DNA from: an uncultured Gammaproteobacteria bacterium
Lineage (GTDB): Bacteria > Patescibacteriota > Microgenomatia > UBA10105 > UBA927
DNA length: 64,000 nucleotides
NCBI GenBank assembly: GCA_964361785.1
Contig: CAYIBX010000002.1
Span: 21,160-85,159, forward strand
Direction of reading: 5' to 3'
Made by a program: the position numbers and the translations under genes
Notes under the pieces: model-generated
Told to the model about the DNA's origin: nothing
The model's input: the letters and a program-made list of their open reading frames with translations, nothing else
Databases searched by the model: none
Part shown: positions 6,201-41,203 of the stretch, in pieces
How positions within the stretch are numbered: position 1 is the first letter of the stretch
Layout of the letters: the number at the start of each line of letters is the position of its first letter

Positions 6201-9200
6201 GTTGCGGTAGCAGAAACGCTGGGTAAATTATCGGTTGTGGCAGATGCACTTACAAAAGAGGGGTTTCACATTGAGAGAAATGCTCAAAAACAATTAGAAC
6301 TGATTGATAATCAGATTAAGGAATCGGGAGTAGGTAGACCACCTTCAGAAGCGGCAAAACAAATGCTTGAAGAGGCGTCAAGCTTCTTGGGTAAAATCGA
6401 AGAAAATTTATCAAAAGCCACAGAAGGAAGAATTTCCGAAATGATAGGGCCAGATCATCCAACGCGCGTTGATCAATCAGAAATATTTATCAAAGCATTA
6501 TTTGACACGGAAATATCTGGTTCTGTAAAAGGAGTCTTATTCAACGGTCAGACAGGGTTAGGCAAGTCGGCATTTCTTCTTAATGCAATCGCTGATGCAA
6601 AAGTAAAGCTTACTGGTACAAAAGTAAACGTACTTGCCACCTCATGGGCTGATGTCTTGGGCATGATGAAAGATTATAGCCCACTAGTACATCACCAAAA
6701 TGGTGTAAAGGCAGTGTATTACAACCCATCAGGGGCCGAAATAATTTATGTCGACGAAGCAGGAGTACAACAGCGATTGTCAAATCATCAAAATGATGTA
6801 CTTGCCAAACAAATTCTTTCTGAAGCAGACGTTATTTATAGTCCGACGCTTGAAACTCCATATGAATTTCATGCATCCAGAAACAATGACCTTCTTACCC
6901 AAGGATTTCGGGAGGGGACAAAAGGCGCCATGCTTCTTATTGACGAGTTTGATGTGATTGCAAATAGCATGCAGTTTTCCTCCGGTGGCGATTCGCGACT
7001 GGCAGCTGATTACGATCCTATACGAACGCAAAAATATCGGGATGTTTTTGCCACAGGTCTTGCAAAAGATTTTATAGACAAAGCGATAACAGTGAAAAAT
7101 GGAGGATCTTTAGGAGAGGATCTTTTTGTACAAAAAGGGCAGAGTGTCGCTTTAGCCGATACAGATTTTGCAAAAGGGTTGTATAAAGAGTTGGTGCTTG
7201 AAGCCGCCAAACAAGCGTATGATAAAGTAAAAGCACAAGGGGAAACTCAAACAGCAGAAGAATTTTTACAAAAAAATAATATTACGCATGATGAGGCAGG
7301 TTTACCTCGTACAAATCCTCGAGATGTCCTTACCGCTCTTGAAAAATATCACCTAGGAAATGAGGCAACGAGTGAATTTAAGTTAGAATTTGGTGACAGG
7401 GCTGGAGTAGCAAACGCTATTGTGGAGACGGCGAGTAGGTCTACAAACGGATACGGATTTGATCCAAAAGGAATACTTGTGTATGGAGATGGTACTGGGA
7501 GACTTCAAAATACTCGTCCACAAGCGCTTTACGAAGCACTAGCGCTTGATACGGTTGGGCAAATGATAAAGAATTCAATACGGAACAAAACGTTTACCCA
7601 CGATCAGGCAATGGCCTTTATCGATAAAGTTACTGTTTCCCTTCAAGGAGAGTCCTCGTCGTGGAAACAGACACTTGGGATGGGTCATTATGCAGATAGA
7701 CTCTACGGATTTACCGGTACTCCAGAGAGTATTATTTTGGATGCACAACTATCTCTAGATATGCAGCTTGTGGTTCCTGGAGCAAAAAAACTTACGTCTA
7801 TTATTCAAATTTTTGGATCAGAGACGATAAAACCTATAAAGAATTCGGAATGGTTTGGGGCAAAAGATGTAGATAACGCGCCTATTACGTTGGGGAAAGA
7901 GGGTGTAGCTCGAATTGTCCTCGAGATGCCTGAATATACAAAAGATGTAACTTTAAAAAGCCTTCAAAAGAAGGTAAATGCATTAGGGGAAGACGTGGAG
8001 TTGATTGTAGTAAACAACGATACAAATATTGCTGAAAATGAAAAAGTAATTATTTACGATCAAGATCATACTATTAAGCGAACAATTGTTGGAGACAATG
8101 AAAAAACAGCAATACAACGATTTGAAGAAGAGTACGCCTATAAAAATAGAGGAACAAAGAGATTTGTTATGATTTTTGATCAAGGGTCTGGAAGAGGAAC
8201 TGATATTCAAGGTGTATTTACACCTACTGATGCGTCATACCTTTTTGGAAGTTCAAAAACGCTTACCCAAACATCCGCAGCCCAAGGCATTGGACGATTT
8301 CGAGAAATTCCAGATACAACCACTGTGTATTTATTTGATGGGCAAGCGGCAGATGGGTTGACAAGAATTCCTTTAGAAGACGCAACAGTTCGGCTTCTTA
8401 CCAACGAAACAGCGAGTACGCAAATCTCAATTACGAATAGTTTGATTCATGGTTATAGCGACATGGTCAAAAACACGATTGATTCGTTGGCGAGTATGGC
8501 AAAGCAGTATGGTGCGGATGATTTTACGATGACGTATGAAGGAAGAGAGATGTCTCTTTCTGATGGACTTAAATTACAATTTGATAAGGTGGGCGGGGTA
8601 AATGATGCACTCACAGAGTCTTCTCAAATAGGCACTGTGGCAATTCAAAAAGCTGCGACACGTGCTCGCGATTTTATAAATAGTATTCGTTCAACGCCTG
8701 AATTTGCTAAATTGCCGATTGAAGTTCGTGAGTATTACCTAAAAAATATTTATAACTATGAAGATGTCCCAATAGCGCTTCAAGCTGGATCACCCACAGA
8801 GTCTACGGTACGGCCAAGTTTGCAGGGAGCGACACGAATTACCGATAGAACAGCGCTTATCAATCAGGCGATATTTGAATCAGATATCGCAGCCACCATT
8901 GGTCGAGAGGGTCGCCAGACACCCACATCGTCCACGCGAGAACAACTTGCACAGATTGAGCGTGCAGCATCTTCAAGAAGCGAGGAAAGTGTAGCGGTTG
9001 CGACAAACGCAATTTCTGAAGCAAAATCAGTAATTGATAGACTTCTTACTGGCAAATCAATTACAAGCGAACAAAGACACATTGTAGCACTTGCCCAACA
9101 AGAACGAGCGAGGCTCGTAGTGCGACAACAGGCATTGGTAGTTCAGAAGTCTTCTGCGCCTCCAGATTCATCTGAATTAGAACAATTGAATACACAAATA

Positions 9201-12200
9201 GCTCAAATTGAAACAATTCTTGCTCCCATAGCAAATAGTACTGACGCGCAAATTATCGATGTGCTGAAAACGGACGCAATGAAACGTTTGAAAGCTTCAC
9301 TTACCAAATCAGGAATACAAAATGTCGATACGTTAAGTGAAGCACAATTAAATATTGCTGTAGCTGCTATGGTTACATATGAAAATGCTGTATCGCTTCG
9401 TACAGGACTTATAGCCACGAATGCACAAAGTGAACAGGCAAAAGTTGCTATCGAAGAACAAACAAAAACAGAAAGAGAAGCATTCACTAAAGCGCTTGAT
9501 GCAATACTTCTTTCATCTGGAGTGACAGCGAAGAATCTTACTTTTGAACGTGCACGATCTGACATGAGTGTCATCACGAATGCACGTGTATCGGAAACAG
9601 TCTTATTTACTGATGGACGACGAGTCCTTATTACTGATGAAGCACAGAAACAGGCGCTTATAAAAGAAAAGCAAGGCGTTATTACAGCGCCACTTTTTAG
9701 TAGTCTGGAAGATGCATCGTTTCAAAAAATTATTGCGTATCAGCAAGAGCGATTGTTGCAGGTATCCAAAGCAACACAGTCAAATAGAATACAAGTATTT
9801 GGACAGTTTGTTGTGAAAAATTGGCAATCGTTTCAGCAGGCATTTCTTCCGCGCTGGGCATCTGTCGTGAATCTATCCCAATTTGGACAAAATCAGACGA
9901 TAAATAATCTCGCTTCCGCAATAAATGCAAAAGATTATATGACTGCGTATGCAATGTTTAATACATTGCGAACAAATGCCAAGAAAAATCCTGATGTATT
10001 TGAAAATGCAGATAGTCTGATGCGCGCTGATGCCGCAGCTCGTTTGAGTATTGTGCTAAACGGCGCAGTAATAAGCCCAAGCGTGACAGAAGTTGAAAAT
10101 ATAGTGTTGTATGAAGCGAGTGCGATTGCGTTTGCACAAAAAGCTTTAAAGAACACCAAAGTGATTGATTATCAAACATTCTTTGAGGCTGCATTTGAGG
10201 ATGATTCTGTGCGTACATCACTTGTAGAAGCGGAAAAGGCATTTGACGCACTTTCTCTTCCACAAGGTATTACGCGGGATAGTTATAACAATGGGTTACG
10301 AGAGGCGATTGATCCAATCATGAATTCTGTATATGCAGTGTTAAAACTTGATGAAAAAATTGCAGCGCGAGATGGGAAGCGATCCACAGTGTCTCAATCT
10401 GGTTCTGTCGATATAAATGTGATTATCACCGGCATCTCTGCATCAGATTATTTAAACGCGTTTTTAGCAATCGACACGCTTGTGGCGGCTGGGGACACAA
10501 CTGGGCGCGACCGAATATCGCAAGCGATACGGGATGATATTAGGGAACGATTAGTGGCACAACAAGTCCCAAGTCCGTCTGAGGAATTAATCACTACCAT
10601 TTTTGATTACCAAAAAGCAGTAGCCAAGAGAGCGTCGGTATGGAAACAAAGCCCGCTTCCGAGTCCAGCGGCGGGGGCAGCGCCAAAAGATTTGTTTAGA
10701 GAGTTTGTAGAAAACGATCCAGAAGTGTTGGCTTCAAAAATAAAGGCTCTTGAGTTATTAAAGGTGGAATTTACTGAATCAAAAGCAGAAGCACTATTTT
10801 TGAGTATCACTGAACCAATTATCGCTTCTACCCGCATTGCAATGGAAAATCGACAACCAAATATTCAAAACGTGACAGGACAAGCTGTACAGCCTGTTCA
10901 ATCTTCCCATCAACCTCGTTTAGAGCCAAATGGGTGGGTGAAATTTGGAAATGTAATTAAGGCAATTATTGCACCGAATGTTTATGCAATTTATGCTAAA
11001 CGTTATTCAACACCTGAATTAACCTTTGCGATCGCAAGCATTATTCCACGATATGCAGCGCCGATAGTGTTTATGGGGCCTGCTGGTATACCGATTTCTC
11101 TTGGAATTGCAGTGTATGATATTGCGCGGACAGCGTTGGAATTACCTTTTTATATAATCGCACATTGGCCGAGAGTGCAGAGTTTCTTTTTGGGAGACAT
11201 ACATATTCTGGATGGATATCCACGTTTGAAAAAATTTGTCGATTGGGTGGTACCGAAAGATGCGCAACAACTAGTGGTAAACGTGTTGGCGGATAGTCGG
11301 GAAGGATATCTTGAGAGTTTAGTAAACGCGACGATGTTTGATGCAGGAAATCCACAGTGGACACCATTAACTTGGTTTACGAGCATATTTACACATACAA
11401 TCACAAGGATTCGCCGTCCCTATTTGTTAGGGTGGGATATATATAGAGCAGAGCGACGGTATGTAGAAGGGGTGACAGGGAAAACTGCAAAGCTTATAGA
11501 CGCCGGATATGAAAAGCCTGACTACTGGAACAGAGGTGGACGCATGTTTGGTCTAGCACCAAGGCGGTTGATCAATGCGACGCCGACGAATGATTCACTT
11601 ATTTGGTGGACAACTCGCGGGCCAGCGATAGTTCTTCTAATTGCCGGAATTGCGACGTGGTGGATACCAGGAGCACCGCTTGTTATTGGTTTAGCAGCGA
11701 CTATTTTAGGTCTGACAACGGGTCCATTTTGGCATTATGATGCACATCGATTCTTTTATGGCGATGGATGGAAAAGTTTGGGATACGCAGCTACATATAA
11801 TCCTCTCGATTGGAAATGGTTGCCACCTCCTGAAATTGCACCTGTTCAAGCACCTTCACAACCAATGCAACAGGTTGCTACTCCTGTCGTCCAACCAACA
11901 CCTGCTCGCGTTAGTTGGACTCGTCGAACGGATGGATTATTTCAGTTTATCAATGCTACACCACAGGGGAGTTGGAGGAAATATTTTGGATCGCGAGCAA
12001 TAGTGATACTTTCACCAGCACCGATACCATCATTGTCATTTTATACAACCAGCGTTATCGCTCGTGCAGCATTTGTAGGAGTATATGACGGATTCCGTTT
12101 GATTCGGTATGTATGGGAAAGTACAAGAAAACCAGTGCAACAGACATCCGTTATTGCTCCCACAGCCCAAGCTCCAGTTGCAGTGACACCGATAGATTTG

Positions 12201-15200
12201 AGTCTTTATGAGCTTTTAGGAACTGTATTTGAAAATCAAGTTATATATTTTGGGCTAGATGTATCTGGGGCATTGATACTAACTACAGTCCAGTCTGACT
12301 TACAGACGCAGTATGGCCACACCAACTGGAGAGATGATGGCACAATAGCGTCACTATTTTTCACTATAGATCGTTTTGGGATAAAGGATTCACAGGGATT
12401 TGATATTCCCACAAATTCTGAATTAGAAATTGTGCAAGATCAAATACAATTTCAGATAAATAACCAAAAAACGGTGTTTGCAAGAAATAGTGATAGCTCA
12501 TATTCTGTCTACAAAGAAAAGGTGAGCGTGCCAGCAACAGACGAGTTTGCTCGTAAAAAAAAGGAATCTCTTGATAGACTCAATGCACTTATCGAAAATG
12601 AATTAGACTATCGAGGGATCCCAGAATCCACGAGGCGTGAGGCTGACAAATATACAGATGCACTTATTGATCAACTCAAACAATTTGTGCAATACGGTCC
12701 AAATTGGAAACAGGAGCTCGCAAAACAATATCCGAGAACATTGGAGCTATTGGGAGCATTACGTTTGCGAAATGTCACGTGGATCGATCAGCCTGTATTA
12801 ACCAATGCTATTTTAGATCACGAAGCGATTCGTCCAGTGGTTGTTGGTGGATTGGCACGGCTGTTTAACGCAGTAGATCAGATACCAAGTGGCACGAAAG
12901 AAATAGCTGATCGATATAACCAACAAGTCATAGCGTTGGATAATACATACAACGTACAAGGATTAAGCGATGTTGAATTGGAGGAATTTGAAGCAGGGTC
13001 CTTACAAACTGTAGCAGAATTTGCGCCCGGTGCTGATGGAGTATTTCTTAGAAAATTTGAGCGAGCGTTGTTGGGAGTAAGCGAACAACCAAGTAAAGAG
13101 TGGATTGCACGGTTAAACCTTCATGAGAACATTCATAAAGGACAAGCAATAGGGCCAAGAGGGCAGCAATATAAAGAATTAGGGGCAATTTATGTAGAGT
13201 GGAAGTTGACCGGAAGCCACACATCTTATGGCGATTTGCGTTGGGAAAATAAACTTCAACGGCTCGATGCATTATTTGGCGAAGGAGTAATATGGCGGTT
13301 TGCCAGAACTGGAGATCCATCCGAATTGGTAAAAATTATATCGGAAAAACGATGGGGCACTCTTGCATCAGTTTTAAAGCAAGAAGGATTTTTAACTGAT
13401 AGAGAAATTGATCAACTTTATTATGGCGAAGCAGATCAAGCAGCAGCATCAGTACAACCGCGCGTGCCGATTGACCAAACGCAGCCAATTGTAGAACCTG
13501 TAGTGCCGCAACCAGCACCTGTATCAAGATATAACTATATAGAAGGGGCTACGAATATATCTCTTCAATTACCGGCTAATGGTCAGATTGGTGAGGGCGT
13601 AGAAGTGTTTGTGACCTATTCAATAGGAGGAAGTGAGCTTACAGAAATTGCAACAGTAATAAATAATGAGGGAGTTGAAGGTGTTCCAACAAGTTGGATA
13701 GTGAAGTTACAAAGTGAAGAAAAGTTTCTGAAAGTTTTAGCAGAAAATGTTGTGTTCCCTGCGACAGTAGCAGAGGTTTCATTAAAGAGTGTATATACAC
13801 AAGCGCGATCATTAGCTTCGTTTCTCGCATTTGCAGATGCTGATCCGTATCTGAATTCAACGCCTTTTGATCTTGTTGAGCAAGATGGATCTACACGAGT
13901 AGTTACGGCTTCACAGGCGTTACAGTTGTATGCGGAATATGAATTAGATGCGTCCACTGATCGTCAAAAGGAGCGGCCGATAAATTTGACAGAGTCAATA
14001 AGAACGATATTAAATCTTTATGACGGACGCGTAACGAATTGGTTTGGTACGCTCATGAGTCACGAGAGAAAACTTCAAAAAAGAGATGCTGAATCAGCAG
14101 AACAAAAACAAGAAATTCTGTCAGATCATCATTTTGCTATTACCAGATTCAGTGGTGATTCAGAACCATTACATGCGCTGATTGATACAGGAGATTATAG
14201 ACTTCTAGATACAAATTTTTCTGGTTGGATGTATGCAAAACAAAATACAGGATTACCGCAGGTAATTACAGAGTATGAAGATAAAACCTTTGATTATACG
14301 CATGACTTAGTATATAAGCTGCATGTTGCCTTAGACGAACGTGATTTCTCCACTGCTCTCCCTGAAATTACTCAATTCCTTCGGTCACAAAATTTCCAAC
14401 ATAAAGTAATGGCGAATAAAAGTGTTATTGATAAGGAAGGAAAGTCTATCACTATTATATTTTCTTCTGCGCAAGAGGCAAAATTGATCATAGAGTATTT
14501 CAAGAATTTGGCAAAAAGAAATGTTCAAGGTATTACACCAGTGTATGCAAAAGATAAAGGTATGATGTTGCAGTATGAATTACCGATTCCAGAAACGAAT
14601 AATCTTTTATACTATACGATCGAATCGGTGGCTGGAACATACTTAGGGTCTGGGCTTACTGAAGGGGTCATCGTTGATGGTCAAACATATAAAGGAGGAT
14701 ATACAGATCGGTTGATACTCATGCAGCGTTTTTGGGGGCATGGTCCGATAGATGATTTATGGCCACAGGATCCCTTCATTGATAGACAAGAGCCGGTATT
14801 AGTCGAGGTTAAGAAGCCTAGAATAGCAATTGATCAACCGCAAGGTCAGTCACAAGATGTCAAAGATCAAATTATTGAAATTAATTCGATTTTGATAAAA
14901 ATATTGGCGGCAGTTTCAGAAGTTGAACTTTCACATCTTCATGATTCAATGTCTCAGTCAAACGTTGAATTATTACTGTCACTATTTAAAGACTCGTTTG
15001 GTAAAGCAAATATCGAAGTATTCCCTGAAGCAACTTCACTGTATGGGTTATTGCAAGCGCTTAAATCTGACACGTTTCAAAAGGATGTCAGTGCAATTAC
15101 AGATCCAGTAGTGGCAACGAAATTAATTATAGAATTGAACGTTGTACTTTCGGGATTAGATAAGGTGAATGCACAAATAGCAAAAGAGCAAGGATCAATT

Positions 15201-18200
15201 CCATCACGAGTTACACAATTGGTAGATAAAGGGATAGAAGCTCTCCAGCAGCCACTTGAGAATAATGCACAAGTAATTGCATTGTTGCAGCAAGTATTAG
15301 ATGAGTTTAAAAAGTCTGGCGGAGTTGTTCCCGTTCAACCAATAAAGACGGTTGATCAGGCAGTGACTGCGTTATCTGATCCTGTAACATATGCAGGAAT
15401 GACAGGATATGTTGGAGATGTTTCTACATTGATGACAGTTGCAATTTCTGCAATGGAAAAAACTTCTCTACTGAAAAAAGAAGCAGCGCAGTTGAAAAAA
15501 GTAGTGCCACTTTTGGAAGCTGGATTTATGCCAGTCGCGCTGTTACCAGCTCACGCAACGCCTGTTTCTACAAAAACTACAACAGAGACTGCGTCAGACC
15601 AATTTGAACGTATTGCGAGAGAGGGTGAGCTAGAGCGCTTACAACTGCTTACAGATTTGCCATTGTTAGGTTTTCAAAAAGGAATTGGTTGTTCGGATTG
15701 CCAAAAATTCGTAGAGAAAATCACGGCATTATTTAAGCATGTTGAAAAATATTCAAGTGCAAAAAATTATAACCTTGTCTTCCGTATATTGGATATTATT
15801 CAAAAAAATATAGATGCAGAACACGACCTACAGCTTGATCCAGACAATCCGGTCATAAAGAATGAATTTGTCTTTACAGCGCTCAATATGTATGTGGCAG
15901 ACAGACGCGTGCAACTTTTGCGTGCGCAGGATGCTACTGCAAATGCGCAAGCGATAGCATTACAAGAATCATTACAAAAGAGATTTAAAAAGGCCTTATT
16001 TGACCGAATTACAGATGTACTTGATGTAAGTAAGACGCCTGATGCAGAGTATAGTAGGCTTACTCCTGATCGTTTGAAACTTAACGCTTTTCAGGCATAT
16101 ATGGACACAGTGGTGCGCGTTGGAATACCTACAGACATTCTATCGGTAGAACAATTTGTAGACACATCACCACCTGTAACCAAGCACGTGTGGCCAACTA
16201 TAGGTGAGTTTGATGGAAAGCAAATACTCGTGCTGACTGATACAGAAGACAATAACAGGCAGGTTGGCTTTCTTGCATTTTCAAGGGTGGGTGAAGACAT
16301 AGTGATCTCACATCTTTTTGTAGACATCGGGTATCGAATGGGAGCAACAAGCAGACTGCTTCAGATGGTACGCGCACTGAACGAAGATGCCAAAAGTATC
16401 CAGTTTGATCCACAAACATTTAGTGCGATAGGGGTAGAAGTAGGGAAAAATGGGGATGAAGATACAAAAGCGCTTATAAAACAGTTGGATGAGTTTGGAA
16501 TACAAAATACGCCAGTGGAGTCTTTGGATGCGCCTCTTATTGCTCCTGTGGTAGCCCAAGCTGCCATAGAAGAACTTCAGGTGGCGATTATGGATGGGAA
16601 ACTGGATCAGAAAGATCTTGATGCGCTTGGTGGGTTGGCGATAGAAGTCTGGAGTGAAGGGCTGAAGACAATAACAGATTATGTCAAAATCATAGTGGAA
16701 AAGCCATTTGTCTACACGGATCCAGATGGTGAAATTACATCGCTTCTTGCAGCCAAAAATGCGCCGAAGAAATCAAGCATGGACATTCAGGCGGATGCGG
16801 TTCGTGCCGCGTATCTGACCGAAGACGCAAAAGATCTCACGGCTTTCGGGACTCTAAAGAAATTATTTTCTATGGATACTGTATTTGCATCATGGGTAAG
16901 AGCGATAGAAGGGGGAGACACCTTTGCTCCAACGAGAACCCAAAAGGAACTTACAAATTTTGCATCGACACTTGTGGATATGTGGTTGGTTGAAGGCCGT
17001 AAGACTATTACGGATCTTAACGCGATAGATACACAAGCCCAAAAGGCTGCCAAGATCATAGTAAAAGACTTACGCGCTCTTATAGATCCAAAGGGCGATC
17101 TACCGATGAGTGAGACAAAATTGTTAGAGGTTCTTTCTACGCTGACTGGAAAGACTACTTTTGATACTCTTGAACAATTTGTTACCTACTTACTTATTGG
17201 AGATGAAAATTTGAAGGCAGATCTTGATTTGCGGTTATCAACTGCAGCTCAAATAGCAAGTAATGTGAGAAGTTCTTTGACTACGGGAATAATTGCTCAA
17301 ATGTTACCTACGATTTATAAGGTGCAACAAGATATACAGGCTGTACCTGTGGGAGCGACTGAAGCTGATTCAACGACAGCGTTATTGTTACAAACCATCA
17401 CAAACTATAACAAAATTGCACCAAAGAACTTTCGATATGTAGAGGCAGATCGGGTTATTCTCAATTCTATACAAGATCGTATCAATGCATTCGTTTTGTT
17501 TTTGAGAACAAATAACGTGTGGAATGGTGAAGAATCTATACCTGCTCCAGAAAATGTACAAAGTCTAAAAGTTCCTGGATTTTTTCGTTTAGCGTCGTTA
17601 GTGACGAGACCGTCAGTACTACTGCCATCGTTGGAAGAAATGGATAGTAGTCAGTCATTTAACGCAGCTATCAGACAAGCATTTTTTGCAGGAGTAGCGC
17701 CAGTAGTAAATCCAATAATTGAACTTGGAGCCGTACGATCTATGAGTATGTTGCGGAAATTAGACGCAATTGAAAATCTTTTTTTAGCTGCAAATGAAAT
17801 TGTGTCCGACCGACAACTTCGAGTGCTTGCTTTACAAGGCGCATCAGATATAGCGCTTGAGGAGCGAATATTCAATCTTCTCGATACAACATGGCAACTG
17901 ACTCCTGAAGAGTTTACAGATGCAGGGACGGATAGATCCTCGTGGATGACACAAGTAATTGCAGCCGTTCGCCAAACGTACGCCACAGAGCGATTGGCAC
18001 AGATAGAAAAAGAAGATCAGGAATTACAAGCAAAACTTGATACATTTTTTGCAACCTTAGACGTACAAGAACAAAAGCGTTTACAGATAATCGTAGATCA
18101 AGAGGAAAAATTGAGAGCTGCAGAAAAAAGATCTGTTCAGCGAGAGGAACTTCGACAACAAATAGCAGAACGTAGGGCACAAATATCACCACTCGTGCAA

Positions 18201-21200
18201 GGATTACAGTCTCTTGCTGACCGTATGGCTCTATTCCCATCATCAAACACCACTCGCATAGCAACGAGAGCGCTAAAAAGTGTACTCAATACAGCAGGGT
18301 TGTCGGTGACAAAAGAGACTCCATTAGCACTTTTAGAAGAGCTTGGGAAGCTACGTGGATTACCAAAGGATTTGGAAAAATTAGAAAAAATATCAGAGGC
18401 ACTACTCGCGTTTGAACAAGCGTTACAATCGCAGCGGCCTATATATGAGCGTCAGGTGACGAAAAAATTCAATGCTATTGTCGAGAAAGCAATACGAGAT
18501 GAGATTGCCACGCAAGTCGCTCGCAATACGCCACATCTTGCTATAGATAGGCAAATAGAAGAGTCTGAAAAAGAGACAGAGTTGTTGTTGGAGCTGGTTA
18601 GGTTGAGAGCAGAACAAGCGAGACTCGCTGATTTTCAAGGAATACTTGATGTGGAAGCGGAAAAATTAGCAGAGGCCGACAAATTAGTTCTCAATCCTAG
18701 CTTGATAGGGAAGGCTTTGGAGTCACCGAAAGATGATGATAACGTGAAAAGAATTGTTCTCAATGGAAGTGCTTCTCAATTACACTTACAAGTGCTTCGA
18801 AGAATAGGTGGAGGGGCAGAAGGAGTTGTTTATCTCGTGGAAGTGTTATCTGATTCGCAACGAAACGATGTCCCTCAATATATAGCCGCAAAAGTATTGC
18901 TAGATACCAATTCTATGGAGCCAATGTTGGCAGAAATGGTCTATGAAATAGTGGAAGCAAATGAAGATGCAGACTTGTTTGTTGATACAAATCATCACTA
19001 TGTCTATGCAAATTATTCCAATTTAGAAGATGGAGTGGTTCTTATGGAATATATTCCTGGGAAATCCATTTATGATTCACAGTTAAGTATTAAGGATATA
19101 GAAATAGCACTAGCAGAATATGTTCATTATTTATATTTATTATCTCAACAATCTATAGTGAATATGGATCCTAAAATGGAAGCGACGTATTGGGATGAAT
19201 CTGCAAAAATGATTCGAATATTAGATGTGGGTGGGATGCGATATGTTGAATTAACTACCGAAGAATATGCTGAAGTTTATAAAGAAGATAAACCAGATGC
19301 GGTTACGATTGCTAAAAAAATGAACAGCGCAATAATGGCAATCCCGAATATATTTGAAAGCCAATTGTTAGACGAGAGAGGAAATTATAATGGATATTTA
19401 TATGAAAAAGCTAAGTTGCGAAAAGCAATGGTGGATCAATTTATTACAATATTGTCTAATCGAGGTGCAGCGCTTACCAATGAACAAAAACAACAAATTA
19501 AGCAGTTAATAAACTCTGATCAGTTTAAAAATGAAACTAAATTTTATAAATATATATTTCTTAAATCATTTGGATTACTCGAGGAGAAAAATTCACGTTT
19601 TTCACCTGCATGGTATCGAGAGTTTCTTTTTGATATTCGTTCTCAAGCTTTAGATAAGAGTGTTTTGCCTCCATCGCTTCAGTTTACTTATACTGCTCAG
19701 GAGGGTGTCCAATCTCTTGAAAGAATAGATAAATATACCGTAATTAATTTGGATATAGACAAGTCAGATGATAAAAAAAGTTCAGTCTTGCAAACAGAAC
19801 AGATGAAAGCGATTGTGCAATCAGTCATCAAATCCTTTGCTACACGGTTTGGATTGGTTACTGGTCAAGAAAAGATTGTGGATGATGCAGTAAAGATTGT
19901 GAGTCAAGCAGGATTGGCGGCGACATTACCAAGCGTGAAGATGATTACAGATGTGCTGGATGCGAGTACAGAGTGGGAAGCGACACAACCATTAATTGCT
20001 AAACAATTTGATGGGATTACCAACCAAGCCCAACTTCTAGCTATTTACGTTCGTGTTGCATTAGCAGTTGATGTGAGCCATATCAAATTAGTTCCTACTG
20101 TACTAACTCAAACACAATTAGCCATCGAGGCGTTAGAGAAAAATACGAGTCTTCCAAAATTGAAACAAAAATATACGTCCTCTGATGCATTCCTCAAAGA
20201 TCCTCAAGTTACACAAATAATTCAAATCGCACTTTTTAACGCGCTTCTTGGCAAAGATGTTACAGAAAACGAACTCACAAATCTTGCCTTGATTGATACG
20301 AAATTTGGCATAAATAGTAAAGAATTTACCATTCTTATTAACTTTGTTGGGGAGTATGTTTTTAACCTACCCAAGAAGAATGGGGCGACACCACCAGAAG
20401 GAGATGGAGCGCGGGGTGGAGGCGTGAAGACTAGTGGAGAAGGAGGATTGACTGCATTAGAAATTGCTGCGGCAAAATTAGCAGAGAAAAACAAACTTCT
20501 CCTTCAACTTGAAGAAGAAATGATAGCATTTGAAAAATCGAATGTGGCAAAAGACAAAGCGAAGAGGGAAGCTATAACCTCTCTGGTTATCAAGATTCAG
20601 AAAGAGGAGAAGGCTCAGGAAGAACAATTTGCCAATTTTGCAAATGCTGATTTAGCCAATCGTATCGCAGAAACATTAACAGACAAGCGGCTTGCAGAGT
20701 TCCTTACTACACCATTGGGTCAACTCGTTACCCTTGACAGTAAGGCGGTCGATCAGAGCACGTTGACTGTGAATATTCGAGATGTCCATGCGCTTCTTGA
20801 GAACCTTTCTCAACAACAAAATGTCCAAGAAGCACAGCGATTTAAGTTAGCACTCTCTCGAATGGATGAAATGCTTCGTCTCCAAGATGAACGGATAAAA
20901 GAAGAACTTAGGTTTCAAAGGATAGCAGAAGAGAGCGCTGAAAAGACTGCATTTAACAATGGTATTGCTCAAATTTCTCAAGTAGTTCAGGTTCAACAAC
21001 AAAGGGTATTACAAGAGCTATTACGAAAGAACCAACGCACAGAAGAGTTACAAGCAAAAATTTTATCTGTATTAATTATGGCAACGGGAAATGAAAACGC
21101 CATAGCAAAAGCATATCGTGGAGGAGTGGGGATAGACAAATTGAGGCAAGAAATCAAGCGTTTATTGAATGCAAACAAGTTGACCGACAGACTGCTTACC

Positions 21201-24200
21201 CAGTATGAAACCGGCTCTACTCAGGATACGCTTATAGAAGAGATGCTTCTTGTTCTTGATGAACTGTATCAAGAATATCGTGATGTAGTGCTTACGAATC
21301 CGCAGTATCAATCAACGCTTTCGTTTAAAAAACAGGTTAAAAAGAATGTAGAAGAGGTGCTCTCTCTCACCTCAGGTCAGGCAATTCGCATAGCACAACA
21401 AGTGGAAAAAGATGCACAGTCGTTAGACTCAAAGTCCCAAAAGGATGACCTGAGGTCTTTTGCACAGGATTTGACAGTTCGCGCGAGGCTACAGGCTGTC
21501 GCAGCAGAAGTACTTGCAGATGAAAAAGTAGGAAATGCCTATATTGGGAATATTGATGATCTAACTGTTCGTTCACTTATTTTTGATGCCATTATGTCGC
21601 GATTAGGTGAAAATGCGGAAGAAATATTTGCGGACGCAGGGACAACACTTCAGGATATGAGTTTTGAAATCTTCGGTAACCTCGATGCAAAATACAGGGA
21701 AAGTAGAGCTTCCGTGAGAAAACGACAGGATGAGGCATGGAGACTGTCTATTTTTAATGTGCAAAAAACCACAGTGGTTGAGCGAGTTCAAACGCTCATG
21801 GGAGTCACACTTCCAGAAGCAGTAAATCTGGCTCCCATTGACGTTGCCTCGTTTATTTTAAGAATTTCTCGAGATAGAGGCACTATTGGACGATACAGGA
21901 AAAAATTAGAAAAACGATTGATGGTCGATAGTCGCATTCATGAGATGTTAGTTCAGGGAAACGGTATAAGTGAGGCTACTGAAGCGGTGAGAGATTTTAT
22001 ACATGAGACGTATCCTGAGTATCGCGCATTAGGGGTGGTTAATGATACATGGATTGATGACGTGGTAAAAACACTAAGAAAAAATACAGAAAAGGAGCGG
22101 CTTGTCTATTTGAGACAATTAGCAGCTCTTCGAAAAAAAGAGCAAGCGGAAAATGCGACAGCTGCTAAGCAGTCAGCAATAGAACGAACGAAAGAACAGC
22201 GGCTTAATGAGTTTAACGTCATGTTGGAGTCGATACAGAAAATTGGATGGATTGCATTTGAGAAAAACAATTATGAAGCAATTCCTGACATATTACGCAC
22301 CACCCTGTTTAGACCGGATGAGTATGATTCTCTTCGATTTCCAGAATTAGCTGTGTTAGACGATATCATTAGTCGGTTTGTATCGAATGCGATACAAAAT
22401 GGAAACGTTAATAATTTGCAATGGAATATAGCAGAAAATGAATTGTTTAAAAATTCTCTTTTTGTTGATCAATATGTGACAAGTGCTGAGCGAACAGCGG
22501 CTATAGAAATTATGAGATACCTTTTTGCCGTGCATGTACAGACTGAACTCAATGATCTTAAACGAACCTTAATACAAAAAAATCCTGTCAAGCAGTCTGG
22601 TGCAGTATATGCAGTGTTGGATTCCTTAAGGTTCGTCTCTTTTAAGCTCAATAGTATTAAGTCATCCAGAGACGGTTTGGTGTTTAACAGATTTGTTTCA
22701 AAAACTGATGTAGCTGCGATGTTTTTGTCAAAGTCTTTATTTGTAACGTTTGATCCGTATGTTCATCAAGAGGTAGGTAATGAGTCGATGATAGTGTATG
22801 TGGGACGAGAACGTGTGTCGATAAGAACAGATGAAAAACGAGATATTCGTTTACCTAACGGAAACATTGCCATAGTGAGCCTGAAACGCATGTTTTCGAA
22901 ATCGTATGAAGTATCTATTACAACAGGAAATAATACCGTCATGATTCCAATTCACTACGAAAAAGCACTTTCTTCTTATTTACCACAGCAGAAAAAAGCT
23001 CCTTGGGGAGCATATGTTTTTGCGGGCATTATGTTGGCAAGTGTCGTAGTTGGATTTCTAACTTTTGGAGGTTCTGTGCCGTTCACATTAGGTCTTCCGA
23101 TGATTGGTGGATTATTGATGACTGGCATCCTATACACGCCAAATCTATCAGCGTTTATTCATCCCACTGAGTGGTCTCAATTGCCTGATTCCTCAGCATA
23201 TACGACAGAAAAAATGCTCGCAGCAGCACCAGTAGTTCCTGTTACACAATCAAGTGTAGCAAATCAGACTGATCGATTAGCTACCGTTAAGATTCAAACG
23301 CAAGGGGTTGCACGGCCAGCAGGGGGCTCCAGTAGTGTTGTCACGGATACTGCACAAGTTGTATCAACTAACGTTAACGAACAACTAATGAAAAATCGTG
23401 ATCAACAAGTCACACTCATTCGATCATCAGCCCTATCATTTGCTACTACAATACAGTCAATAGCACAGGCGTATGTGGGCATTGAATTATCTGAATCTGA
23501 AGCAGATGACCTAGTGTTAGTTTCGCAGGATATCAATACTCTTTCTTCAGTAGATGCAATTGACGTCATAAAAATAACCGAACGAGTTAATTCGTTCATC
23601 GCAACGCCCCTTGGTCAAAAGACTATTGGTCTCATGCAACACGTAAGTCAAGCAGACTCTGTGCGGGCAAATAATTATTCCAATATGAATACTTCAATTG
23701 AGGCGATGAGTTCTGATATTTCTCAGCATTATTTTGGTGGTACTCAAGGAGTCGTGGAGATGAGTGTAGTGAATTTGGATACAGGCGAAACATTTGGGAC
23801 TCAACAACAAACAAAAGTTCAAATGAAATCTAATCTAAATATAGTACAAGTTTATGTGTTGATATCTTTGCTTGAGCAGCAAGGTCATACAGGTGCCGAA
23901 TTATTGTCATTTACACCAGAGGGAATAGGAGGCCTGACTGTTCAGCAAATTATAGACACGTTGTTAACAGAGCATCAAGATTTAGAAGGTAAGATAGCAG
24001 CAAAGCTGCGGATATATTTAAGTGACCCTTCTAGAGAAGAAGCTGTCACTGCTTCTTTATCAAAGACGGGACTTCTTAACACTGATTTAAAGACAAGTAC
24101 TTCAACTGTATCTGATATTTCTACATTTTGGGCATTTGTAAATACAAATGGATTTCCAGATGATGCAGCTTCAAAAGCTATTGTTCGTGCTCTTACTACT

Positions 24201-27200
24201 ATTAATAAGGAAGATGTGAAATCTCGAGCCTTTTCTTACTATAAACAGGATGGACAAGGGCTAGCACTTCCCCTGATGTATTACTCACGAGCGTTTGATC
24301 CCAATGATGCAGATTCAATGAAGCCGATGTTTAAAAATGGTCCGATAGAGACGCTTAATACAAAGGATCCGTTTGTGATAAATATGTTCTCATCAAATTC
24401 GGACTCATCCACAAATAAAGCGACTGTCAATAATAGCGGTATCGTGCAGCTACCAAATGGTCAAAGATATGTCATAGTAATGTCCTTGACCGGTACGATA
24501 TCAGAGCAATCAAACGGCTTTGGTTTTAACGTTTGGGATTTGGAAGATGAAACGACGCATCTGGCAAATATTGCGCATATGTCTTTTGATGCAGGCATGG
24601 CACAAACATATGCTGACAAGACGCAAACTAGCACTGCATATTTTGACGCTAAGGCTACAATAGGGTGGGGAAAGTTAAATAACGTTGCTGATACGGCAAG
24701 TAGAATTAATGGAACTATAATTGAACCAGGCAAGGCTGTAGATATCGCGGCCCTTGCATGGGGATACGATTCAGGTGGAAATCATCACATTAGTTATCAT
24801 GGTGAAATTGGTAGCGGCATGTGTGCAGATGCTTCTACATTAGGTGATGCCATAGATGGATACGGCAATCCTCAAGTGCGTGTATTGGAAGGGACGGCAC
24901 ATCATGATCCATCGATTCATGTTCCGTTTAACCCAGGGATGTATGGCAATATCGCTAATTATTCGTTTAGCCCTGGAAATTCTTATAATATTGCAAATGA
25001 GACTGATAAGCGGTTAAAAATAGTATACACGAGTAATTATTTTACTCTTGACGAGAGTAATCCTGAAAATGTTACGTTAAATTCATGGTTTGCACAGAAC
25101 GGATATGTTTTAGGAAATAATTCACCCAATGATCCACATAATGGGGATTATCCAAATGCACTAGATGTGCTGGGTGAAGATGCATTTACTGTGACTGCAT
25201 GGGTGCTTGAAGTGGATGAGCAGGGTAATCCGATTGCAAATGCGCCAGCCAATGCGTCATATTTTGCTTCAATAAATAAGGCTTCTACGCTTGTGGATGT
25301 AAACACAATCCAGAGCGTGAAAGATATAAATAATGCAATAGCAAGTCTTGATTTGATCAACCAACAATTACAAAAAAATCCAATAGAGACAGAAGGCACC
25401 ATTGAATCAAAACAACAAGTTGACTTAACCAATAATGAGGTGACGAAATATTCTCCTACAGAGCCGTATGATGCTATCATTCCTCAAATTGCAAACATGA
25501 GTATTGATATACCAGAGTCGTATGTACCTGAAGATATCGCAAATTTAGCAGATCGAGCGAATATATATTCGTCGTCTTCTGTGCAAAGTAAATCAATAAA
25601 GACCCCTAGTTTGAATCCAACACTATTGGCAACTATTGTCTCATCTGGTCCTATATTTATGACCCCGCTGGGAGAGAGGATTATTCAATATAATAACGCG
25701 TATTATAACGCAGATACGGGCGAGTTTATTACTAATAATCCTCAGGATATGTTTGTGCAAGTATCTAATGCAAGCATGTTTAATTTTTCGTTGAAAGCTC
25801 CTACAAAACCAAATACTATTGTGGATGAAAAAGATTTACAAAGTAAAGAGTGGAAGGGGCTCATAAATTCCATTGATGCAGAACTCTATGTGATTGGCGC
25901 AAAGGAGAATAAAGATTTTTCAAGAGAAACCATTATACAGATATTTAAGTCTGGTACGACTGAACAAAAAATAGACGCACTAAACGCAATTCATTTAGCT
26001 CTTGCGATTGTCAACCCATACACACAGGACGATAAGACCATGGTTTACGACAAGTACGGTTCATATCACCTCACTGATTTAATTGGAAAAGGGACTTGTA
26101 TGGAGCAAACTGTATTGGCACAGATATATTTATCGTCACTGCAGATATCTTCTGTTGCAACGGAGACTGTTACGACAGGATTTTCTGCAAATGAAGAAAA
26201 GAAAAGCACGTTTGCTCATGCATTCGTAACAGTGGTCATTGACGGTGTACGATATGCGATTGAGTTTTCAAGTGAAGCATACGTTCGTCCAGCAGATACA
26301 ACATCAAATATAGAATATCTGCGTCAAGCATATCCAAACTACACCATGGCGAGTCGAGAATATGCGCTTCGATCAAATACGAAAGATACAAAAACCGTAT
26401 ATAACGTTGTGACACTGCCACTCGATGTCTATTTGCGAAATATTTACTTGGATAATAAAAAAGACGCAGGAGTAACGGATATTCAACTAAAGATATTTGA
26501 ATACGGTGTCGGGAAGATGTTTGCACCAATTTCAGAAGTGGATACAGTAAAAATAGAGCAGTATAAACAAGCTATATCACAATTTGGTCACACAGAATTT
26601 ATTCGTTTTGTACTAGCTAACGAATGGCTACAAGGTCGTATTTTAAACGATATGAAGAGACAAATGGAGGCATTTCGTTCAGGATTCAGTTTAGCGACTC
26701 TCAAAACGCGAGCAACAACTATCTCTACACGTTTAAGAACGACTTTTTCTCGATCCGTTAGTTCCATAAGAATGCGTTTTACAGGATTATTTGTTCGATT
26801 AACTTCAGCCCAACGGCTTACTGTTTCAGATTCTATAGGAACGCATAATAGAGTAAATCAAGAAGTGGTCACTTACAGTGTGCGCGATCAGAGGAATATC
26901 ACAACACAGATTCAGGGTGAATTTGCTTCGGAGTTGTCCTTTGTGAAACAAGTTGAAAAGGAGCGTGTACAGGTGAAACAAGCAAATATTTCCGTATCAA
27001 GCTCTATAGCGAAAATTATCAATGATTTTTCGACATTATCTCCTGATGTTATTAATTCTGATTTGGAAGCATTATATGCGCGCGCCACAGTCGTGTTTGA
27101 ACGTGTATTATCGGATAAAAAAGGCATAAATTCATTTACCGACGCTCAGATCATAGCTATCGTCAGAGCGCTAATGCATGGTGGAAATATTGCGATAGAA

Positions 27201-30200
27201 TTACCAACAGGTACCGGCAAAACTTATGCTACAGCGTTTGTAGGACTTATGGAGTCGCTTCGGGGACGTCCAGTATTGGTTAGTTCTGCAAATGCTGACT
27301 TGGCAGAGCGAGATCTGAAAAATGTATCAGATTTGTTTACTGCATTTGGAGTGGTTTCGGGAGTAGCAGGCAAAGGACAATATTTAAATCTTCAAGTTCA
27401 AATCACCTATGGTAAATTATCTGATCTAGTTTCATCGTACTCACAGGCATTGCGGCAAGGGATAGACATTCCGATAGCTCAATATGTGTTGATACCTGAT
27501 GAGGGTGATAAGAGTTTACTTCAAGAAGCATTAACTCCCATTGTTATGTCTGAAAGTTTTGGAGATCAAGCAAAGATTACAGATGGAGAAGGGCGACTGC
27601 TCGTTTCTCTCGCCAGAAAAATGCGTAATTGGTCAGGTGATGAATTATATTTGGAAACGGAAATTTCTGATAAGCGGTTGTCTGCCTTGACCCCAAGGGC
27701 TATTGAAGAATTAGCCATGTTGAAGCCGGATTCGCTCAATCAAGATGAATTTAACAGGTATGTTGAATTTGCCAGACAGGCGACGCTTATGACAGAAGGT
27801 ATAGATTATCTTTATGATCCTTATACAGAGGAAATTACCCTTTTGGATAGCGAACAGATGTCTGACTTGGATAAAAAGTTTGAGTCGTCGCTTCAACATG
27901 CGTTGGAAGTCAAACATGGGAGAGCGCATAATTTTTCGGATGTTCATGATGTAGTTGTCGACAAACATACGACGATGGCATTTGTACGACAAGTTGGTAA
28001 AGTGATTGTGTTTACAGCGACAGCATTTGATGAAATAAAAGAATTGGACACATATTATGAACTAGACCTTGCATCAATACCAAGTCCACTTTTGATATCT
28101 CTTGCTAAACAGAACACAGAAGATTCACTTCGATTAGTGCAGTTTTTCCATGCTGAAAGTAACCAGTGGATCTACGCCATTGCACAACGGCAGAATAATA
28201 CATGGGTATTAATTGAAAAAAATCGTGTGGATTATGCACCGAGATTTTTTGTAACTGACGATGCAAAAAAAGAAGGAGTTCTACAAGATGTGAAAGACAT
28301 TCAAACAAATAATCAAGCGGTACTTATTGCAGCGAAAAACGAGGGGTATATGGAAACGCTTGCTGAGGCGATTCCTAATGCGTTAGTCATATCGGAACGT
28401 AATCAATCAAAAAAACAAGAAAGCATACTACAGGCATCAGGTAGTCGTTCAGTCGCTATTGGGACAGCAAACATTGGACGTGGTATTAACTTTCAACCAA
28501 GTCAGGCTTTGCAGGAAGCTGGTGGATTTTTTGGCATGATTACCAGCATTTTAAAGCCAAGCACCTTGTCACAAGTGCGTGGTCGTGTCGCTCGATTAAC
28601 AGTACCTCAGCTTGATTCTTTGTCGTTGCGCGCGTGGGGTGCAACGCGGCAATACCTTTCATTAACTGATCTAAAGGAAGTTCTTGGTAAAAACGACCCT
28701 CGGATATTACGGTTAGAGTATCCTTCTGGCGAAATATTGCCAACAGATAAACGATATAACACGCTTCTTTCATTGCTTACAGAAGCGGAACAAAAGCTTC
28801 AGCAGCAGGAAAAAGTTGCTCGTGATTCTCAGTTTCATCTTGACCATACGTCAGATCGTATTACGTCAACCAAGCGCGCTTTGGCACTCTCTGGATTTGG
28901 CGCTGCTCGTCAGACATACGATTGGATGTTGCGTCGGTTAGCTCAGTTACCAAATCAGAGTCAGGCAGCAGTATATCGAGAACAGATAGAAGCAGCATGG
29001 AAACAGTACTTGCTTGATCTTGAGTACTTGAAGACCACCGCATGGTTAGGAGTGATGGAGGAAAAAATTGAATTTGATGTGTTCTATCAGAAAGAGTCAG
29101 CGAGTTTGTTGCGTCAGATGATTACGACACTTTCTCAAGAAGTACCGGTAGAAGTCTTAACGCCGACTATAAGTATATTAGAAAACGATACTTGTGCAGG
29201 ATCACGTGGAAATTGTGTAGCTGAGGCTCTATTAACTGAGCGTGCTATCGATTCAATTCTTACCAGTAATCTTTCTGTGGTGGATAAAAGTAACTTGCTT
29301 GATGGGTATATCCCAAGTAAGGAAGCAATGCCAGCTCATCAATACGCACAGCATGTAGCTATGCTTGAGCTTGCAAAAACTCAAATTAATCCAAAGATGG
29401 GACAAAAGGCGTCTCAAATAGTGACCTCTGCGATGCAGTATATCAATGCAATACTCGATGGGAATATTACTGTTGCTGATAGGGATGTAACAACAGCTGT
29501 AAAGAAGCGAATGCAAAATATTATAAATGCATTGCAACTGAAGGTGGATTTTGAATCTAAAAATGCAAAAATACGAATAGTAATTACCACTGAGCAACCA
29601 CCTGATCGATTTGCAGCTATCCGTGCTTGGATGCCAGCGCCAGAGACAATTCTTCAAAATCCATTTTTGAAATGGGCGACGCCATTTTTTGCGAGACTTG
29701 GATTGGGTGTCGTACCTCCTTCAAGAGATAATAGTGAAGCTCGAATTGTGATTGATCAGCAGCAACTTTCATCAGGAGCTGATTCAAATACAATAGCACA
29801 ACTTAGTTTGGATGATTTTTTGAAACAGTTCTCTACTATTTCACAGTTGTCATTACAAGGAAAGCGTTTTGAACTTACTGGTCAAATAAGCGTAGAGTCA
29901 CTTATTCGTTTACACACAGAATTATCGTATGAAGCTACCGTATTACTTCTTAAAGACGGGAGACGCATATTGATTGTCGGTAACGAAGAATTTGCAGCTA
30001 AAGAGACGTCTGTAGATAGTTTACTTACAGAATTCGGTGAAGATCAGATAGTTTTGAAGCTTCATTCACATATCGATACAGATCATACACCTATATCTAT
30101 AGGAGATCTTGTCGCGTATGAAGAAATTTTTGGAACACATGTTGTTATCAATGATGATGGCATCATGACATACGCAGTTCCAAACGAGGCCAAGAACGAA

Positions 30201-40960: not shown

Positions 40961-41203
40961 TCATTTTGGTTTGAATTGAGCCATGAATGTATGAATATCT
41001 TTTTTTGTACGTAATACTGTTCCTCGTCCCGCTTTATAATCTGCTTTTGCCTCAGCTACCATGCGATCGAGTTTGTGATCACGAAGAATCTGACGTAATG
41101 CAGTACGAGCTAGATCGCTAAACGACGCATAGTGCCCATCTGCAATAGCTGCATCAGCTTCTTTTTTGAGAACGTCTGGAAGAGAAATGTTTATAGTAGT
41201 CAT
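40961..41203 (-). CDS. Ribbon-helix-helix (ParD/CopG-like) antitoxin. The probable start is the internal Met (MTTINISLPDVL...); the track ORF extends to 41221
   Basis: A beta-strand followed by a helix, INISLPDVLKKEADAAIADGHYASFSDLARTALRQIL, typical of RHH antitoxins. It is an 80-86 aa protein immediately upstream (3 nt gap) of the RelE-like toxin. Confidence 0.55.
   Translation of the reverse strand: MTTINISLPDVLKKEADAAIADGHYASFSDLARTALRQILRDHKLDRMVAEAKADYKAGRGTVLRTKKDIHTFMAQFKPK

Follow-up and report, generated by a model that had tools for sequence, protein, structure and literature searches.

The kinase-like module of a giant protein

In this study, we analyzed a kinase-like module encoded in the window, a stretch of 64,000 nucleotides from contig CAYIBX010000002.1 (assembly GCA_964361785.1), in which the module forms part of a giant protein translated from one open reading frame (ORF). 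Three domains are recognizable over the full length of the protein, the kinase-like module, a SecA DEAD-like ATPase and a GNAT acetyltransferase-like domain (Table 1), and the protein is otherwise nearly blank to Pfam, searched over its whole length, and to NCBIfam, searched over residues 1–9000. Self-BLAST detected neither internal repeats in the protein nor a second copy of the module.

The module has the size of a kinase N-lobe plus C-lobe, and the core that is alignable to known protein kinases spans the Gly-rich loop (G-loop) through the DVG motif into the start of the activation segment. A preliminary description of the window had listed six kinase motifs in the order and spacing typical of kinases. 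All six were located, each with a single occurrence and in the frame of the giant ORF, and the earlier coordinates were off by at most 1–8 nt. The flagged interval, translated in the same frame, contains LQVLRRIGGGAEGVVYLVEVLSDSQRNDVPQYIAAKVLLDTNSMEPMLAEMVYEIVEANEDADLFVDTNHHYVYANYSNLEDGVVLMEYIPGKSIYDSQLSIKDIEIALAEYVHYLYLLSQQSIVNMDPKMEATYWDESAKMIRILDVGGMRYVELTTEEYAEVYK. The residue spacings are 23 from G6205 to K6228, 52 from K6228 to E6280, 40 from E6280 to D6320 and 19 from D6320 to D6339, with the same four intervals in PKA being 17, 49, 45 and 18. The patterns G.G..G.[VIL] and D[FLV]G[GLFI] each occur once in the 13,468 residues, both at the module. A regular expression for the ordered composite motif matched residues 6200–6341 only and 0 of 3000 shuffles of the whole protein, a result that is indicative only since the expression was chosen post hoc. 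The preliminary description had also considered that the segment might fold as a coiled coil, but the module itself is not one, and coiled-coil-like sequence lies upstream of it, in ~200 charged, heptad-like residues (~5960–6165).

Table 1. Locations of the module, its motifs and the other recognizable domains of the giant protein
Feature	Protein residues	Window positions	Strand	Basis
Giant ORF, 13,468 residues, carrier of the kinase-like module		210..40616	+	ORF translation
Full family-conserved module, ~380 residues	6166-6544	18705..19841	+	Alignable to P0001 and P0002
Core matching known protein kinases	6184-6357	18759..19280	+	PrkT profile; YabT, PKA/RSK/ROCK/Akt alignments
Gly-rich motif IGGGAEGVVYLV	6199-6210	18804-18839	+	ORF translation
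Gly-rich loop G6200-G-G-A-E-G6205 (GxGxxG), then VVY		18807..18824	+	Three Gly invariant in 3/3 members
IAAKVL	6225-6230	18882-18899	+	ORF translation
beta3 lysine K6228 in IAAKV		18891..18893	+	Aligns with YabT K55 in VALKV
EPMLAEMVYE	6237-6246	18918-18947	+	ORF translation
VVLMEYIPGKS	6276-6286	19035-19067	+	ORF translation
Hinge M6279-E6280-Y6281		19044..19052	+	Glu invariant in family; MEY at same place in YabT
VNMDPKMEA	6317-6325	19158-19184	+	ORF translation
Catalytic loop N6318-M-D6320-P-K6322-M-E6324-A6325		19161..19184	+	Asp, Lys, Glu kept; Asn to Ala
ILDVGG	6337-6342	19218-19235	+	ORF translation
DFG equivalent D6339-V-G-G		19224..19235	+	Identical to YabT D167-V-G-G
SecA DEAD-like ATPase	~8938-9279	27021..28046	+	Pfam PF07517, E = 2.7e-16, above cut-off
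GNAT acetyltransferase-like domain	~12612-12716	38043..38357	+	Pfam PF13508, E = 3.2e-5

Homology of the module to Hanks-type protein kinases

The NCBIfam model of the Ser/Thr kinase PrkT/YabT (NF058632) matched the domain alone in register over profile positions 14–179 of 322 (E = 1.8e-6). In an unbiased scan of residues 1–9000, undertaken as two pieces of 4500 residues, PrkT was the sole NCBIfam match at E ≤ 0.01 (residues 6184–6357, E = 1.9e-5). Comparison of the single domain sequence with the sequences of the PDB identified Bacillus subtilis YabT (6G4J, residues 31–186; E = 0.003) as its sole non-artefactual match, the aligned pairs in YabT and the window being GKGANGIVYL/GGGAEGVVYL, VALKV/IAAKV, MEYIKG/MEYIPG, GDLKPDN/MDPKMEA and IRCIDVGG/IRILDVGG.

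Two relatives only, P0001 and P0002, were found by an exhaustive phmmer search of 1.84 billion representative proteins. P0001 (E = 9.4e-7) is a protein of 1162 residues from a complete gene in assembly GCA_964492255.1 that sits between the genes for RNase J and FtsK. P0002 (MBI4035173.1; E = 2.2e-4), a partial sequence of 1456 residues from a metagenome-assembled genome of Candidatus Chisholmbacteria, which belongs to the candidate phyla radiation (CPR), is named 'serine/threonine protein kinase' by NCBI. By blastp, residues 649–904 of P0001 align with residues 6190–6466 of the giant protein (E = 4.4e-12) and residues 863–1216 of P0002 with residues 6166–6544 (E = 4.9e-10), the identities being 24–31% over about 280–380 residues; outside the module, blastp found no region of either relative that resembles the giant protein. 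Word-index homology searches, performed with the single sequence and with the alignment at E ≤ 0.001 and E ≤ 10, returned nothing, an outcome that is unreliable for this family because P0001 and P0002, both present in that collection, were not returned either. No relatives were found in two scans each of genome contigs and metagenome contigs, nor in viral contigs and phage records. The defence models of PADLOC had no match in the window domain or P0001, and a match of P0002 to the mad6 model (E = 0.0061) was discounted as it had no stretch that passed alone. The first 260 residues of P0002 (locus L005) contain VAAVVKPYKG, NKGHNVFYVTGG and VVLFDHESYE in that order and look vaguely kinase-like or phosphatidylinositol-kinase-like by eye, with no family match to that region.

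A profile of three sequences, comprising the domain, P0001 and P0002, matched 195 distinct PDB sequences at E ≤ 1. The best 60 of these 195 matches are all eukaryotic-type protein kinases that align from the G-loop to the DFG motif, led by PKA (1.4e-4) and followed by RSK, ROCK and Akt, and the reversed profile, which served as a control for composition, had 0 PDB matches at the same threshold. Alignment by hhalign with the kinase domain of PknB extended from the hinge through DFG (P = 0.0014). These in-register matches to PrkT, YabT and PDB kinases bear out the proposal of the preliminary description that the giant protein contains a module of the eukaryotic protein kinase (ePK) type with a non-canonical catalytic loop. 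Based on these alignments, residues ~6166–6544 are very probably homologous to the Hanks/ePK kinase superfamily, and the module would represent a very divergent Hanks-type variant in an orphan family of three members, one of which is from a CPR genome.

The best E-values of the single sequence against the PDB (2.8e-9) were to designed 'Bagel' propellers, over residues 6250–6313 (window 18957–19148), and together with the silence of Pfam Pkinase and the lack of a confident structural model they are what favors a chance resemblance within a very long protein of unrelated fold, such as a PQQ-like beta-propeller blade. We rejected the Bagel matches, as they result from one 64-residue query stretch being summed over 4–8 identical designed repeats, each of which alone has an i-Evalue of 2.7–20, and the HYLY-type residues that match are not conserved in the relatives. 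In addition, there is independent, in-register evidence for a kinase, the control with the reversed profile is empty and none of the shuffles gave the motif order. The motifs are not chance, and an unrelated fold is highly improbable. The Bagel artefact is a trap for automated annotation of this segment.

Nor do the matches point to a branch of the protein-kinase-like fold that acts on a small molecule or lipid, of the ABC1/UbiB, aminoglycoside/choline kinase or Kdo/RIO kinds. In its favor, the only Pfam signal on the domain is to ABC1 (PF03109; E = 0.022), in register from the hinge through the catalytic loop to DFG, the C-lobe is without APE and other motifs for binding protein substrates, and neighboring genes are related to glycans. 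However, the ABC1 match covers profile positions 135–228 only, a segment common to all kinase-like folds, and scores 14.3 bits versus a cut-off of 22.9. ABC1 proteins have an Ala-rich loop, HADPHPGN and an N-terminal KxGQ motif, and small-molecule and atypical kinases have D-x-x-x-x-N without a Lys at D+2 (two residues after the catalytic Asp). In contrast, the window domain has a classical GxGxxG loop and D-x-K and lacks KxGQ, and all of its significant matches are Ser/Thr protein kinases, which makes such a branch improbable.

YabT/PrkT is the best single-family match of the module and its nearest characterized relative. Both have GxGxxGxVYL, AxKV, MEYIxG, a non-RD loop with D-x-K and DVGG in place of DFG, and both occur in membrane-anchored proteins with no recognizable extracellular sensor domain beside the kinase. 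YabT is a kinase of the 315-residue class with a C-terminal transmembrane helix and a basic, DNA-binding juxtamembrane segment (PMC6333020, PMC3708118). The window domain, in contrast, is internal, at about residue 6200 of 13,468, between unrelated flanks and with the nearest hydrophobic segments more than 1000 residues away. It aligns to YabT from the N-lobe through DVG only, and YabT keeps the loop Asn (GDLKPDN) where the window has Ala. A YabT/PrkT equivalog is defined by a full-length match above the cut-off together with a C-terminal transmembrane helix and a basic DNA-binding juxtamembrane region, and the window domain, with its partial match below the cut-off and its internal position, does not qualify as one. 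Relative to canonical ePKs (PF00069; PKA, RSK, ROCK, Akt; PknB), the order and spacing of subdomains I–VII are the same, whereas HRD is replaced by N-M-D and DFG by DVG, the catalytic Asn is absent, the C-lobe is unalignable and APE is unrecognizable.

A number of results weigh against the interpretation of the module as a kinase, or as one that is functional and cytoplasmic. The PrkT match scores 27.2 bits versus a model cut-off of 280. Pfam Pkinase (PF00069) had no match at E ≤ 1 in the window domain, P0001 or P0002, nor did it match elsewhere in the 13,468 residues of the giant protein, and the check by hidden Markov models that the preliminary description had proposed was thus satisfied by the in-register PrkT match and not by Pfam. 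AlphaFold2 gave no usable model from the single sequence or the three-sequence alignment (predicted local distance difference test scores, pLDDT, of 33.9 and 35.8, respectively), and Foldseek comparison of the low-pLDDT model with the PDB gave no match at E ≤ 0.001, and the 50 matches listed included no kinase but only noise such as nitrophorins and spliceosome parts. Because the AlphaFold2 models are unusable, the kinase fold is inferred from sequence only. The family alignment has three rows only, making conservation statistics weak. Four Glu residues in the right segment are candidates for the Glu of helix alphaC (E6237, E6242, E6246 and E6249) and the alignments do not fix the equivalent residue. 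APE and an alphaF DxWxxG-type motif are not recognizable in any of the three family sequences, and the C-lobe aligned to no known kinase, with alignments ending ~15–20 residues past DVG. The D+5 position of the window copy is Ala6325 (codon gcg), with no Asn within 10 residues after Asp6320. Lastly, the Kyte-Doolittle hydropathy scan alone leaves the topology of the giant protein ambiguous.

Outside the core, P0001 and P0002 share R-[YF]-A-E in the alphaC segment, the C-lobe set of APE, alphaF Asp and subdomain XI Arg that is typical of ePKs was not recovered, and the C-lobe is conserved within the family only, as in I-x-Q-L-[IV]-[NS]-S-[DE]-x-F-[KR]-[NE].

Catalytic residues and possible activity

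The two relatives provide a view of which catalytic features are general to the family. Their G-loops are LGGGFEG or LGRGAEG, the beta3 Lys lies in IVIK (IVIKY) or YAAK (YAAKV), the hinges are LLEY or MMEL, the DFG equivalents are VIDIS or VSDVG, and the catalytic loops are NLDIKGEN and NIDSKTEN, both having the full N-x-D-x-K-x-E-N. Columns invariant in all three sequences include the three Gly of the G-loop, the hinge Glu, N-x-D-x-K-x-E and the Asp of DFG, a pattern that would be expected of a family selected for catalysis. N-x-D-x-K aligns to GDLK of YabT and RDLK of PKA, and N-x-D in place of HRD is common to the whole family, with YabT having F-G-D. In the window copy, the His and Arg of HRD are Asn and Met, respectively, making it a non-RD kinase like YabT.

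The preliminary description had noted that the catalytic-loop Asp and Lys are kept and that the Asn is missing, and both observations hold, with Asp6320 and Lys6322 being present and Ala6325 at D+5. The DNA from Asp6320 reads gat cct aaa atg gaa gcg acg tat tgg (D-P-K-M-E-A-T-Y), in comparison to D-x-K-x-E-N-Y in the relatives, so that the window copy differs by Asn to Ala plus one extra residue. Since both relatives keep D-x-K-x-E-N, the loss of Asn is peculiar to the window copy and not to its family. A further difference from P0001 and P0002 is an insertion of ~13 residues, MRYVELTTEEYAEV, that directly follows DVGG, includes Thr-Thr and Tyr and has no counterpart in either relative.

The consequences of these changes can be considered in the light of characterized kinases. 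The catalytic-loop Asn is the second Mg2+ ligand, and its loss goes together with a loss of metal binding in the pseudokinases EphA10, EphB6 and TRIBs (PMC7586955). YabT is active with DVG, its Asp167 contacting Lys55 and its Val168 packing on helix alphaC, and it is autophosphorylated at Thr171 and Thr172, just past its DVGG (PMC6333020). The DVGG of the window copy is therefore no argument for a dead enzyme, because active YabT has the same DVG(G). Lys6228, Asp6320, Lys6322 at D+2, Asp6339 and an intact G-loop are all kept, and by the usual three-residue criterion (beta3 Lys, HRD Asp and DFG Asp) the window domain would be scored as a kinase. Of the altered motifs from which the preliminary description suggested an atypical kinase or pseudokinase, the DVGG therefore carries no weight; the genuine departure is the lost Asn, and the domain may be either.

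The same residues bear on whether the module is a pseudokinase, that is, a kinase fold that may bind nucleotide but has lost phosphotransfer and acts as a scaffold or conformational switch in the giant protein. Such a loss would be attributed to the change of Asn to Ala, the one-residue insertion (E-A-T-Y versus E-N-Y) and the non-canonical C-lobe, and Ala6325 does stand where both relatives and YabT keep the second Mg-binding Asn, a residue whose absence accompanies lost metal binding in the three pseudokinase examples given above. The insertion after DVGG, unique to the window copy, is also in line with it. Against this are the retention of the three defining residues, the G-loop and the D+2 Lys, and the fact that kinases can be active despite lacking the Asn, as in the case of CASK, which works independently of Mg2+. 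Retention of this many catalytic residues would be surprising in a dead domain, but three sequences are too few to demonstrate purifying selection. We regard a pseudokinase as possible but as the less probable outcome.

Because the second metal ligand is replaced by Ala6325, a weakened or atypical metal dependence is to be expected rather than certain death of the enzyme. Given a kinase fold, the retained residues leave the chances that the window domain has some phosphotransfer activity evenly balanced. Our verdict from the sequence comparisons is that the module is probably a genuine, highly divergent Hanks-type kinase-like domain that is catalytically weakened or metal-atypical, and we lean slightly toward the full proposition that this kinase-fold domain continues to use ATP and serves as a phosphotransfer or regulatory module.

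Were such a domain functional, ATP would sit between the lobes, under the GGGAEG loop, and be held by Lys6228. Asp6320 would act as the catalytic base, and Lys6322, whose D+2 position is a mark of Ser/Thr specificity, would touch the gamma-phosphate. Asp6339 of DVG would bind Mg2+, leaving a single canonical metal site, as the second would be weakened by Ala6325. The module would most likely be cytoplasmic, alongside the other cofactor-dependent modules of the protein, the SecA-DEAD ATPase (ATP) and GNAT (acetyl-CoA). A regulatory role might, speculatively, be exerted through autophosphorylation, for which the TT/Y-containing insertion behind DVGG is a conceivable site, although the assignment of MRYVELTTEEYAEV as an autophosphorylation segment is likewise speculation; or the domain could phosphorylate the giant protein elsewhere or its partners, the SecA-like ATPase being one candidate.

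The giant protein, its setting and the implications of the module

The SecA DEAD domain of the giant protein is divergent and lacks the scaffold and wing domains of SecA. Its Walker A motif, PTGTGKT, is at nt 27204–27224, and a weak match to a SecA P-loop directly follows the domain. The GNAT domain scores 24.6 bits, slightly under the cut-off of 27. By Kyte-Doolittle hydropathy, the protein has at least seven hydrophobic segments, which lie near residues 50, 3617, 3808, 7601–7641 and 12889–13035. If the modules that depend on ATP and acetyl-CoA are all inside the cell, the simplest topology would place residues 3827–7600, and with them the kinase module, in the cytoplasm. A preprint on other multi-enzyme giants from groundwater bacteria describes them as anchored in the membrane with their bulk largely cytoplasmic (bioRxiv 10.64898/2026.06.07.730766). 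P0001, which is a free-standing, soluble protein and not part of a giant one, has no hydrophobic segment by the same scan, and therefore at least this member of the family works in the cytoplasm.

Several other segments of the giant protein drew our attention. A poly-Gly tract, GGGGGTGSGGGGNARGGGG, follows the first hydrophobic segment. Residues 2113–2248 (window 6546–6953) contain a Walker-A-like GQTGLGKS and, ~130 residues on, LLIDEFD, which resembles a DEAD-like Walker B. These residues, within the N-terminal quarter of the protein, could form another helicase or ATPase module; the P-loop region near residue 2113 was unseen by the Pfam, NCBIfam and PDB sequence searches. There are three HExxH motifs, LHENIH (window 13122–13136), MHEHIH (37107–37121) and VHEFFH (40284–40298), the last of which is in a Cys-rich C-terminal tail beyond the hydrophobic cluster at residues 12889–13035, and the C-terminal end that carries it may be extracellular and metalloprotease-like. 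We also considered residues 11580–11781 (window 34947–35552), which contain RIYRITVAGREYLLKE, YYVGDLDGYDF and VVGFDFE in that order, as an atypical kinase of the RIO/Kdo type. This candidate was rejected, as the resemblance is by eye only, with no support from Pfam and no similarity to the N-terminus of P0002.

The host protein has the features of a class of SecA_DEAD-bearing giant proteins, namely a very long ORF, transmembrane segments, a divergent SecA DEAD domain and GNAT. West-Roberts et al. (2023; bioRxiv 10.1101/2023.11.21.568195) describe membrane-associated giants of Omnitrophota and some other phyla in which a divergent SecA-DEAD domain is often accompanied by GNAT. The protein in the window shares with this class, as portrayed in that preprint and in a second one (Nielsen & Lui 2026; bioRxiv 10.64898/2026.06.07.730766), its anchors, SecA DEAD, GNAT and unannotatable bulk, whereas the emphasis there is on proteins of at least 30,000 residues and the window protein is shorter. 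The domains reported for those giants include histidine-kinase ATPase, PPDK, ROK kinase and Ser/Thr phosphatase, and the accessible sections of the two preprints make no mention of a Hanks-type kinase (bioRxiv 10.1101/2023.11.21.568195; 10.64898/2026.06.07.730766).

Downstream of the giant gene, positions 41154–63849 hold a membrane glycosyltransferase-type cluster comprising two PMT_2 genes, YfhO, an NPCBM-domain protein and two GT2 genes, as well as a methyltransferase, a hexapeptide transferase and a dTDP-sugar epimerase-like gene. On a longer contig (locus L006), the glycosyltransferase-type cluster is followed by Fic, AbiEii and three AAA_14/DUF4143 genes. No tRNA genes were found in the window. 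The genes of the window recur on assembled contigs of up to about 120 kb from Hainich groundwater (well H43, 0.1 µm and 0.2 µm filter fractions), a recurrence that is consistent with an ultra-small bacterium of the CPR or Omnitrophota.

A more far-reaching scenario, which we consider unlikely, is that the module is the founding member of an unrecognized kinase family limited to ultra-small, CPR-type bacteria. In that scenario, it would be either a metal-atypical kinase (CASK-like and Mg-independent) or a nucleotide-gated pseudokinase switch, controlling the SecA-like ATPase and hence how the giant protein is exported, processed or deployed, or else an effector kinase that is delivered to the host cell of an episymbiont.

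Most of the length of the giant proteins found in ultra-small groundwater bacteria matches nothing, which makes these proteins a current puzzle. The module is not a new principle. However, with only three recognizable domains in 13,468 residues, it represents a rare functional handle on a nearly unannotatable protein and, at ~380 residues, an experimentally tractable fragment of it. The two relatives with a complete loop and the window copy without the Asn together constitute a natural experiment on the dispensability of that residue in bacterial Hanks-type kinases. In addition, the numbers of kinases counted in CPR and other uncultured lineages may be too low, because kinase domains as divergent as this one escape Pfam. 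For the giant protein itself, the presence of a kinase-type module near residue 6200 suggests that it is regulated by, or carries out, phosphorylation.

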